Part shown: one piece after another, positions 19,401 through 25,400 of the stretch | Numbering within the stretch: position 1 is the first letter of the stretch | Layout of the letters: every line of letters starts with the position of its first letter | Assembly: GCF_057098645.1 (NCBI RefSeq) | Contig: NZ_CM169472.1 | Strand: one strand, 5' to 3' | Length of the DNA stretch: 64,000 nt | Program-made: the position numbers

Positions 19401-22400
19401 AGAAGGCGACCGACTGCATTCACGTAAATTACGAACCTTTAATGAGCCGCCGTTCCGATAATAAGTTCTGAACCTTCTTATCAAAAATAGATGTGAAGGA
19501 TTAAGTAAGACATCTGGCAAATAGCCCGCAATAAACGCGGGCTCTTTGCTTCCTTGGGCGGATACGAGTTTTATTATCGTCTTAATGATTTCCACATATT
19601 AAAAGCAAGTATGCTTTCAAAACACAATTATAAAAAATCCCACCAACAATATAAGTTTTTATAAAATTAAATATAAGATTATGACTTTAGAATATTTTTA
19701 TTTCTAATAGACGAGATTTTTCCTGTTATGATATAATATGCCGAATTAACACATGTTAACGATTTACCAGTAATGTAAATAAATTTTCGAGGAGATCATT
19801 CCAGTGGGACGTAAATGGGCCAATATTGTTGCTAAAAAAATGGCTAAAGACGGTGCAACGTCTAAAATTTATGCAAAATTCGGTGTAGAAATCTATGCTG
19901 CTGCTAAACAAGGTGAACCCGATCCAGAATTAAACACATCTTTAAAATTCGTTATTGAACGTGCAAAACAGGCACAAGTTCCAAAGCACGTTATTGATAA
20001 AGCAATTGATAAAGCTAAAGGCGGCGGAGATGAAACGTTCGTGCAGGGACGTTATGAAGGCTTTGGTCCTAATGGCTCAATGATTATCGCTGAGACATTA
20101 ACTTCAAATGTTAACCGTACGATTGCTAACGTTCGCACAATTTTCAATAAAAAAGGCGGCAATATCGGAGCGGCAGGTTCTGTCAGCTATATGTTTGACA
20201 ATACGGGTGTGATTGTATTTAAAGGAACAGACCCTGACCATATTTTTGAAATTTTACTTGAAGCTGAAGTTGATGTTCGTGATGTGACTGAAGAAGAAGG
20301 TAACATTGTTATTTATACTGAACCTACTGACCTTCATAAAGGAATCGCGGCGCTAAAAGCAGCTGGAATCACTGAGTTCTCAACAACAGAATTAGAAATG
20401 ATTGCTCAATCTGAAGTTGAGCTTTCCCCAGAAGATTTAGAAATCTTTGAAGGGCTTGTTGATGCCCTTGAAGATGACGACGATGTACAAAAAGTTTATC
20501 ATAACGTCGCAAATCTCTAATGATATTTTAAAGAAATCTGTCTTTATGGCAGATTTCTTTAATCTCATATAATTCTTATAAAAAATATAATGTTTAACTC
20601 GTCATATTGCTTATAAAAAATCCCCGTTCCCAGAGAAATAACATTTATTAAAATGGCAGGTCTTCTTTTTCTGATTACCGAAGACAAAGTGGCAATTACG
20701 TATAGTTTCCCGATAAAGACGCGACAGCTACATCCCGCATAAGGCATTTTTCTCTTTATCTTTGTACGGTACTTCATGGAACAGAATTTTTGACCCTGTG
20801 AATCGTGATGTCTGTTGGGGAGGGGCAATTTGCTCACTGAAGCGTGAGACTCGATTAAGCGCACGAAACACAGAAATCAAAAAACCCGGCCACTTTTTTT
20901 ACAAAGCGGCCGGGTAAAAATAATTTTTATTTTTTAACTGTTTTGAGACTTATAGAGATATCTCAAAACTAAAATTTGGCTCCTCTGACTGGACTCGAAC
21001 CAGTGACATACGGATTAACAGTCCGCCGTTCTACCGACTGAACTACAGAGGAATCGTGAGAACGAGGCGAATATTAGCGACGCTCATCCACAATGTCAAA
21101 GCCTGTTTTTTAAATTTGAAATCGTTTGCTGAAATAATCTGCACTTTGTCGTTTATTCCGACACAACTGGCTTTTTTTCACACTTTTGCGGCTCAGGTCG
21201 AGGATATTTCCACAGCCAACGTCCAGTAACCATTCGCCAGTAAAACAGCACGGCCCGCACAGCCCAGTCGGCAAACATTCCCATCCAGACACCAACCACA
21301 CCCCAGCCAAGCATGATTCCCAGCACATAACCGACTACAACCCGGCAACCCCACATGCTCAACATAGAAACCCACATGGCGTAACGTGCATCGCGAGCAC
21401 CCTTAAATCCAGCGGGTAGCACCCATGAGGCAGACCAAATAGGCATAAATAAAGCATTTAGCCAAATCAGAATCACAACGACATGTTTAACCTGTGGATC
21501 CTGGGTGTAAAACGATGCCATAACCCCGGCAAAGGGAGCCGTTAGCCAGGCGATGGCCGTTAATCCAAGAGTGGAAAGCCAGAACACATGCCGCAACTGA
21601 ATCTCTGCTTGCGCTATCTGTCCTACACCCAACCTTCGGCCTGTAATGATCGTAGAAGCAGAGCCGAGCGCACTTCCGGGTAAGTTGATAAGAGCCGCAA
21701 TTGAAAACGCGATAAAATTTCCGGCAATAACACTGGTCCCCATCCCGGCAACGAACATTTGGGTTAATAACCGACCACTGGTAAATAACACTGATTCGAC
21801 ACTCGCGGGAATACCAATCCCCATGACTTCCCAGATAATGCTAAAATTCAGCGGTTTAAAATAGCTCTTTAACGAAATCCTTAGCGCAGGATTAAAACCA
21901 ATCGCCAGCACCCACAAAATTGCCACTGCGCCAATATAACGAGAAATGGTTAACCCCAACCCAGCCCCGACAAATCCCAGTCCCGGCCAGGAGAAAAGGC
22001 CGTAAATCAATATGCCGCTAATAATAATATTAAGAATATTCAGGCTACCGTTAATCAGTAGCGGTATTTTCGTATTCCCTGCACCACGAAGTGCCCCGCT
22101 ACCAATCAAAGTGATGGCAGCTGCTGGATAACTGAGTACCGTCAGCTCCAGATAAGTCAACGCCAGTGCTTTAACTTCTGTCGTGGCATCACCCGCGACG
22201 AAATCAATAATTTGCTCGCCAAAATGATGAATAAGCGTTGCCAACAGTACGGCAAACAACGTCATGATCACCAATGACTGCCGCGTCGCCACCCTCGCTC
22301 GTCGTCGATCCCGCTTACCGAGACTAAATGCCACAACGACAGTAGTACCAAGATCGATAGCAGCAAAAAAGCCATAATGACCATATTGAAGCTGTCCGCC

Positions 22401-25400
22401 AATCCCACGCCGGCCATCGCATCTTTTCCCAGCCAGCTGACCAGAAAAGTGCTCAGAACCCCCATCAACAGGACACAGGCATTCTCCATGAAGATAGGAA
22501 CAGCAAGCGGGGTTATCTCGCGCCAGAACAACACTTTGTAGCTCTTGCGTTTAGCGTGCCAGCGAGTGCCGTGAACAACCTGGCGTAAAGCAGAGGAGAT
22601 ATTCAAAGCCGACCTTAATTGCAGAAAGTGAAACCACATTTCAAATAATGAGGGAGAATCAGCAAAGCTGCAAAGATTTTCGCCAACAGATTGTCTGCAA
22701 ATGCAACAAACTGTTGATAGAAACGGCAAACAGTTGGGAAAATTAAAAATCGGGTTTGACAAAAGATTTTTCGCCGTTAAGATGTGCCTCAACAGCGATT
22801 CCTCTGTAGTTCAGTCGGTAGAACGGCGGACTGTTAATCCGTATGTCACTGGTTCGAGTCCAGTCAGAGGAGCCAAATTTCTGAAAAGCCCGCTTTTATA
22901 GCGGGCTTTTTGCTATATCTGATAATCAATTTCCTCTTCACTGTTTTCCATCACCTGCCGCTTGATATCCTCAACTGAAAGTCCTGCATTACAAAGTTCC
23001 AGAAAGCGCCAGACATAGTTACGCTGAAGTTGTCCTCGCTTCAGTCCCAACCAGACAGTATTAGCATCAAAAAGATGCCGCGTATCCAGGCGGATTAAAT
23101 TCTTTTCCTCTTGTTCACCGCTGGATTGTTCGGCAACTATTCCGATCCCAAGCCCAAGAGCAACATAGGTTTTAATGACATCAGAATCCTGCGCACTTAA
23201 TACAATATCTGCCAGCAAACCTTTGCGGGCAAATGCGTCATCAATACGTGAGCGCCCCGTAATCCCCTGTCGGTAAGTGATTAACGGCCACTTCGCTATT
23301 GATTCCAGCGTCAATGGTGTAATTTGCGTCAAGGGATGATCGAGTGGAACAAGCAAACTATGGTGCCAACGAAACCACGGGAAGGCGACGAGCTGCGGGT
23401 CATTACTCAAACGCTCGCTGGCGATACCAATATCAGCTTCACCATTATGCAACAACGTCGCAATTTCCTGTGGCGTCCCCTGGATTAGCTCGAGCCGAAC
23501 CTCCGGGAAAAGTTCGCGAAAAGATTTAATGACCTCTGGCAAACTATAACGTGCCTGAGTATGCGTCGTTGCAATAGTGAGAACGCCAGACGTATCGTTG
23601 GTAAACAGGTCTGCAAGCCGACGAACATTACTGGCTTCATTCAGAATACGTTCTGCAATGACCAGTAATGCTTTGCCCGGTTCAGTCATGCCCAGCAGTC
23701 GCTTACCTCGTCGAACAAATATTTCGATGCCAAGTTCATCCTCCAGTTCCCGAATATGACGGCTGACGCCGGACTGTGAGGTAAAAAGCATATTCGCAAC
23801 CTCTGTCAGGTTGTAATCCTGACGTGCAGCCTCGCGGATTATCTTTAGTTGTTGGAAATTCACGGTAAACTCCGGGCAGTTCAGATTTTCCGTTATTGTT
23901 AAAGTCTAATGCCCGGCATAACAAATAATAAAAACCCGCATCTTATTCCATCCCGATATAACGCTTAGCTCACCAATTGCCACTGCCTTTTTTCCATCAC
24001 TGGAGAACTCATCACTGACATTAACAACTCTTTCACTGCCTGTGCCTGTGGTGATAAGTTCGCTCTGGCGGGTAAATTTAATGACAAAGAGAGACTCATG
24101 GAAGGTGTGGTAATGCGTGACATCCACCCGTTTACTGCGCCACATAACGAACGCGCGGCCGATTCGGGTAATACTGCAACGCCCATGCCGCTGGCAATCG
24201 CTGCGGTAAGCGTGGCAATAGACTCAATTTCACCAATGACTTTTGCCGTGAGTCGCCGTAGGGAAAAAGCCTCATCAACACGAAGTCTAACAGCACTGTA
24301 ATCACTGGGAAGAAAGAGGTTCATTTGCGCAATAGCATTAACATCAACGCTTTGCCCCGGACAATCTTGAGTCCCTACCAGGAAAAGATCTTCTTTCAGT
24401 AAAGCCTGACTGGATACACCAGCCACAGGGGAATGCTCATAAATCACCGCCATATCGAGTTGGTGATTTATCAGTTTTTCGTTAAGCACTGCACCGCTAT
24501 TTTCATGAAGATAGATAACGACCTCCGGGAATTCAGCGCGAACCGCCTGTAATAAGGGCATGGTGATGGATGACGCAGCGGTTCCTGGCGCAAAGCCAAT
24601 CGAGACTTGCCCCGATAATGCCTGACCAACGTTATGCACCGCCAGTTGGGCCTGCTCACACTGACGTAAAATGGCCCGCGCATGGGTATAGAGAATTTTT
24701 CCGGCGTCAGTTGGCGTAACGCCCCGTTTTGTGCGAATCAAAAGTTGTTGATTAAACTCACCTTCCAGTGTGGCAACCTGCTGGCTGAGCGCTGGTTGTG
24801 CGATATGCAATACTTCAGCAGCCTGGGTCAGGCTACCAATATCTACAATTTTTACGAAGTATTTCAGGCGTCTGAAGTTCATGTTGCCTCCGGTTTTTAA
24901 GAGTCGGCCCAAGTGCCGCCATTACTTACAACCAGAATGCAAGATGCTTGCCAGTTCTATTTTGGCGTTGATGCGCAAGCTAACCAACTGTCAAATAAGA
25001 GATTATGATAGATTCGTCATTGGCTCTTTTTATCTGCAGTCGCATTCACCTGCCCTATAAAAGGAGGGTATGCACCACGATGGTTCATTACCCAATAAGA
25101 TTGAAAGCTCACCACTTTGTTGAAATTGGCAGCAAACAAACAAAAAAATGCATTTCACCCTTTGACATCACCATGCACTGCCATTAATATGCGCCCCGTT
25201 CACACGATTCCTCTGTAGTTCAGTCGGTAGAACGGCGGACTGTTAATCCGTATGTCACTGGTTCGAGTCCAGTCAGAGGAGCCAAATTCAAAAAAGCCTG
25301 CTTTCGAGCAGGCTTTTTACTTTCTAATTATCAACGCTCTTAAAACATCTGTCTTGAACCAGAACTAATTTGCACAGGCATTCCCGATCGACGTTGCAAC

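Follow-up and report, generated by a model that had tools for sequence, protein, structure and literature searches.

Positions 1-4997 of the window, by which we mean the whole 64,000-nucleotide stretch analysed (RefSeq assembly GCF_057098645.1, contig NZ_CM169472.1), appear to form the right part of a resident island of ~13.7 kb integrated at the tRNA gene asnT, with positions 4998-5018 as its attR. Judging from close relatives, asnT is thus occupied, a reading to which we assign a probability of about 0.93. Site-specific recombination within the 3' end of asnT would have duplicated that end, leaving the 21-nt copy at 4998-5018 (plus strand) as attR, while asnT itself, a fourth tRNA-Asn gene expected ~8.7 kb to the left of the window start, would serve as attL.

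Four occurrences of the 16-mer CCAGTCAGAGGAGCCA were counted in the window, whereas 100 shuffles give an expectation of 0.00. The fourth, partial tRNA match covers positions 4998-5013 and corresponds to tRNA positions 61-76. The sequence-only reading had announced such a 3'-end match, whose existence is borne out, but had placed it at 4989-5004, which is 9 nt off. When both flanks were compared by eye, identity with the asnT attL was found to run on through AATTC to position 5018, giving a direct repeat of 21 nt at the far end of the island. A search of the window for further tRNA-Asn fragments of at least 11 nt returned a single 11-nt T-arm match at 62049-62059, which was rejected as being at chance level. 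The chance-expected size of that match could lend some colour to the idea that the 16 nt are likewise a coincidence, or a generic motif of tRNA type with no link to asnT. We give this idea practically no weight, since the shuffles produced no such match and since the 16 nt stop exactly at the tRNA 3' end and run straight into the asnT downstream flank, exactly as in 2675 genomes.

This flank was recognized by constructing an empty-site junction in silico, with mtfA-asnT joined directly to window position 5014 onward. Of 5426 complete E. coli genomes, 2675 carry this junction without interruption, at 98-99.7% identity; these are counts of clonally sampled genomes and not of independent events, and the genomes that carry it include a K-12-coordinate strain. 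The 3'-end match thus corresponds to the asnT site, as had been proposed. The chromosomal flank of the site consists of an intergenic region and yeeJ (5019-14640, plus strand), the latter interrupted by an IS3-family element of 1310 nt (8132-9441) that was delimited by alignment to relatives and by its ALIL pseudoknot (Rfam). None of the 5426 complete genomes agrees with the window over its full length; the best relatives differ from it in the IS in yeeJ, in extra yeeJ repeats and in a divergence after position 32035.

The left-hand context of the repeat was provided by two relatives. The first 8 kb of the window are 100% identical to strain RM12761 (O145:H28) by megablast and 99.95-99.98% identical by local blastn; positions 1-4997 match the RM12761 record from 2475810 onward at ~99.95% identity, in a region annotated tssF/tssI/PAAR. 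RM12761 and the chicken strain AHM8C212RI share the layout mtfA-asnT-int-...-tssG-tssF-vgrG-...-PAAR-repeat-yeeJ. In both, an intact asnT with an integrase gene by its 3' end, two features that fall outside the window, lies 13.7-14.2 kb to the left of the repeat, the 16 nt being found in the same place 13,695 and 14,161 bp downstream of asnT, respectively. These data bear directly on the earlier claim that the match is a scar, that is, either a destroyed asnT or the footprint of a departed island at a site that is now empty. Inside the window the 3'-end fragment is indeed all that is visible, and border decay is known for the high-pathogenicity island (HPI) of E. coli (PMC8209727). However, positions 1-4997 are island DNA, continuous in the close relatives with an integrase gene and a complete asnT of identical sequence, so that 13.7 kb of island DNA stand between the tRNA gene and the repeat. 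True empty sites, moreover, join asnT directly to window position 5014 onward without a separate fragment. We consider a scar very unlikely: the match would instead mark the far edge of an island that has not left the site.

The island part of the window has a GC content of 42%, against 46% for the flanking chromosome. It comprises the 5' end of tssF (1-89, minus strand; RM12761 annotation) followed, on the plus strand, by vgrG (394-2508; Pfam Phage_GPD, Gp5_trimer_C and Phage_base_V), two ORFs of unknown function (2542-2931 and 2903-4171), a gene for a PAAR protein (4250-4531; Pfam PAAR_motif) and a conserved right-end arm that abuts the repeat (4906-4997; 99.6% identical in AHM8C212RI). In the relatives the cargo consists of int, HigA, tssG, tssF, vgrG and PAAR, and the resident integrase is of the P4 type, with the domains Arm-DNA-bind_3 (PF13356), Phage_int_M (PF22022) and Phage_integrase (PF00589). 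Of a full type VI secretion core set (tssA-M, hcp, vgrG), only tssG, tssF and vgrG, together with PAAR, are annotated in the island. It would combine a tyrosine integrase of the HPI/pks kind with remains of toxin-antitoxin genes and a type VI module in decay. The cargo is mosaic and its vgrG-PAAR cassette differs between strains. We also considered the type VI genes as a simple deletion derivative of the full type VI cluster of strain AR Bank #0349, which was rejected at a DNA identity of only 66-69%. Our literature searches returned nothing specific on an asnT type VI island in O145:H28.

Between the PAAR gene and the right-end arm lies a fragment of a second integrase gene (4676-4873, minus strand) that covers residues 355-420 only. 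It gives 68% identity over 66 amino acids by tblastn (E 8e-22) and 86% over 203 nt by blastn, and belongs to an integrase type found beside asn tRNAs in AR Bank #0349. This fragment is cargo debris inside the island. Its position 125 nt from the repeat, the mosaic cargo with its variable cassette, and the several integrases and islands entangled at the asn tRNAs of AR Bank #0349 could nevertheless be taken to mean that the repeat is left over from the edge of another, earlier island (one of the AR Bank #0349 type, for instance), and that the present island is a composite made by accretion and internal rearrangement and not by a single integration. This appears unlikely to us, on three grounds. 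The 16-nt tRNA part of the repeat is close in length to the 17-bp repeats of the pks (colibactin) island (PMC8209727), an island with an integrase of the resident kind. A different island inserted at the same flank in strain ET5 gives a repeat of 24 nt. Finally, the arm at 4906-4997 recurs, with 92% identity over 92 nt, as the right end of a ~45-kb type VI island in AR Bank #0349; there it is kept without the integrase fragment and lies directly against a near-identical repeat in the flank of asnU.

The closest known islands are the HPI (yersiniabactin) and pks. The HPI has the same target, asnT, on the same side; its integrase is 69% identical to the resident one and starts 161 nt from the tRNA end, the gap being the same 161 nt for the resident integrase. 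The two differ in cargo, as the asnT island carries type VI debris and no ybt, irp or fyuA genes in place of the ybtS...irp...fyuA set that defines the HPI, and in the right direct repeat, which is kept here and lost in the HPI of E. coli (PMC8209727). Genuine HPI copies inspected in other genomes are unlike this island. The pks integrase is 70% identical to the resident one, and pks likewise lies between short direct repeats that copy the 3' end of the asn tRNA, but it carries other cargo, uses another tRNA copy (asnW, asnU or asnV) and measures 54 kb against 13.7 kb.

Exactly three tRNA-Asn(GTT) genes were predicted by ARAGORN in the whole window and retrieved with Rfam: asnW (20977-21052, minus strand), asnU (22800-22875, plus strand) and asnV (25209-25284, plus strand). 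Each scores 72.6 bits with RF00005, for a gathering score of 29, and each folds into a cloverleaf with the anticodon GTT at positions 34-36. Their alignment gave 76/76 identical nucleotides, which upholds the first description of the three genes as identical. Around the full copies, exact identity stops after 4-6 nt on the upstream side and 4-5 nt on the downstream side, making blocks of 84-86 nt, while asnT and asnV have 105 nt of exact identity in common. By synteny with the annotated, collinear RM12761 record the gene order is yeeN-asnW(-)-yeeO-asnU(+)-cbl-nac-asnV(+)-ldtA, so that the tRNA genes do bracket yeeO, cbl and nac as had been stated. The MATE exporter gene yeeO (21153-22639, minus strand; RM12761 annotation) lies between the inverted copies asnW and asnU; it is frameshifted in the window by the loss of one A from an A7 run near 22364, as seen from split ORFs and alignment to RM12761. 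The direct repeats asnU and asnV enclose cbl (22913-23863) and nac (23965-24882), both on the minus strand and supported by ORFs and the RM12761 annotation, and ldtA (25340-26275, minus strand; RM12761 annotation) follows asnV.

Each tRNA gene may be a small separate transcription unit with a predicted promoter and hairpin terminator. A promoter match of the TTGACA/TAATAT type (10 of 12 positions, by consensus match alone) was found upstream of asnW (21099-21071, minus strand), asnU (22756-22783, plus strand) and asnV (25162-25190, plus strand). The terminator scan predicted a hairpin for asnW (20884-20915, minus strand) and a terminator for asnV (25291-25318, plus strand), and a hairpin with a T-run after asnU, common to the end of cbl, was read directly from the sequence at ~22888-22911.

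The arrangement is that of the K-12 asnT/asnW/asnU/asnV cluster at about 44 min, with which the window shares anticodon, gene names, order, orientation, the neighbours yeeN, yeeO, cbl, nac and ldtA, and a single 76-nt tRNA sequence in every copy examined. The inter-tRNA spacings of 1823 and 2409 nt in the window are those of K-12 MG1655 to within 1 nt. K-12 differs in having an empty asnT site where the window, judged from its relatives, would carry an island, and the frameshift in yeeO is a feature of the window. Records of tRNA-Asn on plasmids (13-14) were also encountered; the one that was examined is a linear piece of chromosome mislabelled as a plasmid, and these records were rejected as biology. 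Such misfiling indicates that the region is able to trouble assemblies.

We then measured how often each copy is used, counting genomes and not events as above. Junctions uninterrupted as in the window were present at asnW in 4980 (92%), at asnU in 5180 (95%) and at asnV in 4664 (86%) of the 5426 genomes, which corresponds to broken junctions in 8%, 4.5% and 14%, respectively, and in ~51% at asnT. By this comparison the window carries the majority, uninterrupted alleles at asnW, asnU and asnV, all three being unoccupied. Other genomes have the HPI at asnT, the pks island beside an asnW-type copy and the right end of another island at the asnU flank. The asn copies are thus integration sites for islands, as had been suggested. 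That the asn tRNAs are identical and serve pks and HPI was described by Auvray et al. (2021), and any identical copy is usable by the pks island (PMC8209727).

With 84-105 nt of perfect identity in common, the copies would also be occasional substrates for homologous recombination. In other strains the segments between them are flipped or deleted, which would be the work of homologous, or possibly integrase-assisted, recombination; RecA and integrase are not told apart by sequence because the crossover falls inside identical DNA. Single-junction queries gave the counts of recombinants, and a long-arm multi-flank query the asnT/asnW class. The junction of the asnW upstream flank, the tRNA and the asnU downstream flank was detected in 32 genomes, with yeeO visibly flipped between asnW and asnU in CP53. 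A hybrid of the asnU upstream and asnV downstream flanks was detected in 35 genomes, some of which show a clean loss of cbl-nac (for example Esc20). The asnT upstream flank was joined to the asnW downstream flank in 1 genome, ET5, where yeeJ..yeeN is inverted. The literature searched contained no description of the yeeO-only flip, the asnU/asnV hybrid or the asnT/asnW flip. Among the matches listed, SE15 has the asnW upstream flank joined through the tRNA to the asnV downstream flank, and PU-1 shows this layout together with pks. This layout matches the inversion of the asnW-asnU-asnV region published by Auvray et al. (2021) for pks-positive B2 strains (PMC8209727), whereas in the window the region is not inverted and follows the majority layout. 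The proposal that identical copies are rearrangement substrates is thus supported by recombinant junctions in other genomes, while the window itself, on alignment, keeps the standard arrangement and has no rearrangement. For pks and HPI, the cluster, the use of asn tRNAs by islands and the inversion are already known in principle and belong to ordinary biology.

The claim that only asnT shows a scar does not stand as worded: asnT would be occupied and not scarred, and 'only' is doubtful in view of asnW. The 3' flank of asnW (20829-20976, minus strand), which includes its terminator hairpin, resembles a tRNA-to-integrase spacer, with 74% identity over 154 nt (E 3e-20) to another type of asn-tRNA island (L009, 3838-3988). 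In ~40 genomes the first 67 nt after asnT match this flank, which is fixed in most E. coli. A tblastn search for integrase remnants beside asnW found none, leaving the spacer-like stretch of ~150 nt, and the flank is probably an old island relic. It may be, though we hold this as a tentative and rather doubtful idea, that the asnW flank and the integrase fragment of the asnT island derive from one integrase module of the kind seen in AR Bank #0349, which would point to an island that occupied asnW in the distant past and to former exchanges between this site and asnT. If so, the 'empty' asn sites would not be pristine and the asnW terminator would be island-derived; the four-copy cluster would then be a long-running source of small inversions and deletions, such as the yeeO flip, the cbl-nac loss and the yeeJ-yeeN flip, beyond the single published inversion.

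For annotation, positions 1-5018 of the window are best treated as the end portion of an island inserted at asnT, the boundary falling at 4998-5018; beyond good annotation, the significance is small. The counts over 5426 genomes, those of the recombinant junctions included, provide a useful gauge of the frequency with which these identical tRNA genes are used. In this O145:H28-like lineage, asnT would be occupied by an island other than the HPI, while asnW, asnU and asnV would be free.

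Exactly three tRNA genes were identified in the 64-kb window with ARAGORN, all tRNA-Asn with the anticodon GTT: asnW (20977-21052, minus strand), asnU (22800-22875, plus strand) and asnV (25209-25284, plus strand), each scoring 72.6 bits against the Rfam tRNA model. Pairwise comparison confirmed that they are identical over all 76 nt, as the sequence-only reading had claimed. Perfect identity among full asn copies extends only 4-6 nt further upstream and 4-5 nt further downstream; the identical blocks common to the copies measure 84-86 nt, or 105 nt when asnT is compared with asnV. 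A candidate promoter of the TTGACA/TAATAT type precedes each copy by about 20 nt, and a predicted hairpin terminator follows it, that of asnU being read from the sequence. Synteny with the annotated genome of RM12761, a close relative of serotype O145:H28, gave the order yeeJ, glycosyltransferase, shiA, amn, yeeN, asnW(-), yeeO(-), asnU(+), cbl(-), nac(-), asnV(+), ldtA(-), cobTSU. This order is that of K-12 (MG1655). The names asnW, asnU and asnV and the yeeO-cbl-nac neighbours proposed earlier are therefore right.

A partial fourth match, CCAGTCAGAGGAGCCA, lies at 4998-5013 and corresponds to tRNA positions 61-76. Four copies of this 16-mer are present in the window, versus 0.00 expected in shuffles. 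The sequence-only reading had placed it at 4989-5004, 9 nt off, and had taken it as a scar at the asnT site, one of several potential targets for islands such as the high-pathogenicity island (HPI). The match is real and does mark asnT, but the site is occupied by a resident island, which is not the HPI.

The window's first 8 kb are 100% identical to O145:H28 strains RM12761 and RM13516 by megablast (99.95-99.98% by local blastn). RM12761 has an intact asnT, with the same sequence as the other copies, at record 2467052-2467127, some 8.7 kb to the left of the window start. Behind it come a tyrosine integrase of 420 aa, a second, degenerate integrase, genes for a HigA antitoxin and small regulators, tssG, tssF, vgrG, two genes of unknown function, a gene for a PAAR protein, and finally the 16-nt repeat and yeeJ, with 13,695 bp from repeat to repeat. 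An unrelated chicken isolate, AHM8C212RI, shows the same architecture and repeat, with a 99.6% identical right end, a repeat-to-repeat distance of 14,161 bp and a different vgrG-PAAR cassette. There, window 2509-4249 (two proteins without Pfam match, between vgrG and PAAR) is replaced by other genes (18509-20633). The interval resembles an exchangeable effector/immunity cassette within an island that is conserved in its other parts.

We removed the island in silico by fusing mtfA-asnT to window 5014 onward. Of 5426 complete E. coli genomes, 2675 (49%) contain this 676-nt island-free junction as one contiguous match with 98-99.7% identity, among them a strain with K-12 coordinates. Because relatives carry asnT, integrase, cargo and repeat in this order and the empty-site junction exists, the repeat is not a scar but attR, the border of an island still in place. 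Window 1-4997 is island DNA, and the chromosomal flank of asnT runs from 5019 onward. A site-specific origin is supported by two further observations. In strain ET5, a different island at the same flank leaves a 24-nt repeat. The island right arm (4906-4997, 92 nt) also terminates a complete type VI secretion island of about 45 kb in AR Bank #0349, where it abuts a one-mismatch repeat copy and the asnU downstream flank.

Like other P4-type integrases, the RM12761 island integrase has an arm-binding, a central and a catalytic domain. It shares 69% identity with the integrase of the HPI and 70% with that of the colibactin (pks) island, and the gap between tRNA end and integrase start, 161 nt, equals that of the HPI. 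A literature search found no paper on this particular type VI remnant island at asnT; it belongs to a known class of islands and is an ordinary example of it. Within it, 125 nt from its right border, 4676-4873 (minus strand) encodes a 66-aa C-terminal integrase fragment, 68% identical to the AR Bank #0349-type asn-tRNA integrase. The asnW 3' flank (20829-20976, terminator hairpin included) matches the tRNA-integrase spacer of the same type (74% identity over 154 nt, E 3e-20). This flank probably derives from the left end of an old island, possibly an ancient relic fixed in most E. coli; if so, asnT would not be the sole site with a trace of past integration.

Occupancy of all four sites, asnT included, was assessed with 676-nt junction queries (300 nt + tRNA + 300 nt), a genome being counted when one match spanned at least 80% of the query. 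Junctions were uninterrupted at asnW in 4980 (92%), at asnU in 5180 (95%) and at asnV in 4664 (86%) of the 5426 genomes, the majority allele that the window carries at all three. Sampling of asnT in other genomes turned up the HPI, in two of them, and also an island bearing type IV pilus genes; in PU-1 a pks island lies beside the asnW-type copy. The proposal that asn tRNAs serve as island integration sites is borne out.

Their proposed role as rearrangement substrates also holds. We searched the genomes for hybrid junctions joining the upstream flank of one copy, the tRNA and the downstream flank of another; counts are of genomes, not independent events. The yeeO-3'-end/tRNA/cbl hybrid occurs in 32 genomes of six identity classes; in CP53, yeeO is flipped between asnW and asnU and the rest is collinear. 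The yeeO-5'-side/tRNA/ldtA hybrid occurs in 35 genomes, with a clean cbl-nac loss leaving three tRNA copies in Esc20. The majority of these genomes are members of a clone resembling AR Bank #0349, whose complex layout includes three integrases and an entire type VI island between asnT and cbl. The mtfA/tRNA/yeeN-side hybrid was found in ET5 alone, with the 13-kb yeeJ-yeeN segment inverted between asnT and asnW. An asnW/asnV inversion was seen in at least SE15 and, with pks attached, PU-1. These events may have arisen by RecA-dependent recombination over the 84-105 nt of identity or with the help of an integrase.

In AR Bank #0349 (NZ_CP041996.1, 2,909,761-2,975,215) and about 29 similar genomes, the order is asnT-int-[complete T6SS island]-repeat(1 mismatch)-cbl-nac-asn-int ... 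int-asn-yeeO-asn-ldtA, and yeeJ to yeeN are gone from their usual place: a multi-step rearrangement among asn copies. In SE15 (NC_013654.1, 4100-5021) a second, partial copy of the yeeO 3' end, 922 nt long, stands beside the yeeN-side tRNA. NZ_CP196293.1 (5969 bp) is classed as a plasmid but consists of a linear stretch of chromosome, yeeO'-asnU-cbl-nac-asnV-ldtA-cobTS-cobU'; this assembly leftover may point to heterogeneity in the asn region or to difficulties with its repeats.

The window's first 32 kb are mostly collinear with RM12761. A 1310-nt IS3-family element at 8132-9441, absent from that site in RM12761, interrupts yeeJ; it has two ORFs (108 and 296 aa) and an Rfam ALIL frameshift pseudoknot (8467-8583), and a 3-nt overlap in the alignment suggests a 3-bp target duplication. 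The yeeJ adhesin varies in repeat number, because 849 nt at 10216-11064, present in the window beyond what RM12761 has, resemble the adjacent Ig-like repeat (86%). In yeeO (21153-22639, minus strand), an A7 run near 22364 is one A shorter than in RM12761, leaving ORFs of 393 and 174 aa, through either a real frameshift or a homopolymer sequencing error. The sequences diverge after 32035, and the window apparently has no counterpart of the large IS-rich island that follows cobU in RM12761. Over 32036-64000, ORF size and order resemble yeeA-sbmC-dacD-sbcB-yeeE-plaP-yeeY-yeeZ, with the sRNA STnc240 at 42390-42464, a His leader (45204-45327), hisGDCBHAFI (45335-52407), then ORFs like wzzB, ugd and gnd, and a cluster of the O-antigen type.

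Auvray et al. 2021 (PMC8209727) described the asn tRNA genes as 100% identical, with pks inserted at asnW, asnU or asnV with 17-bp direct repeats and the E. coli HPI at asnT, its right repeat lost; they also reported an inversion of the asnW-asnU-asnV region. According to a review (PMC7545054), many ExPEC strains carry the HPI at asnT and have pks at asnW. The biology of asn tRNA integration and rearrangement is already known; the present result, otherwise of low interest, has its value in boundary annotation and population counts.
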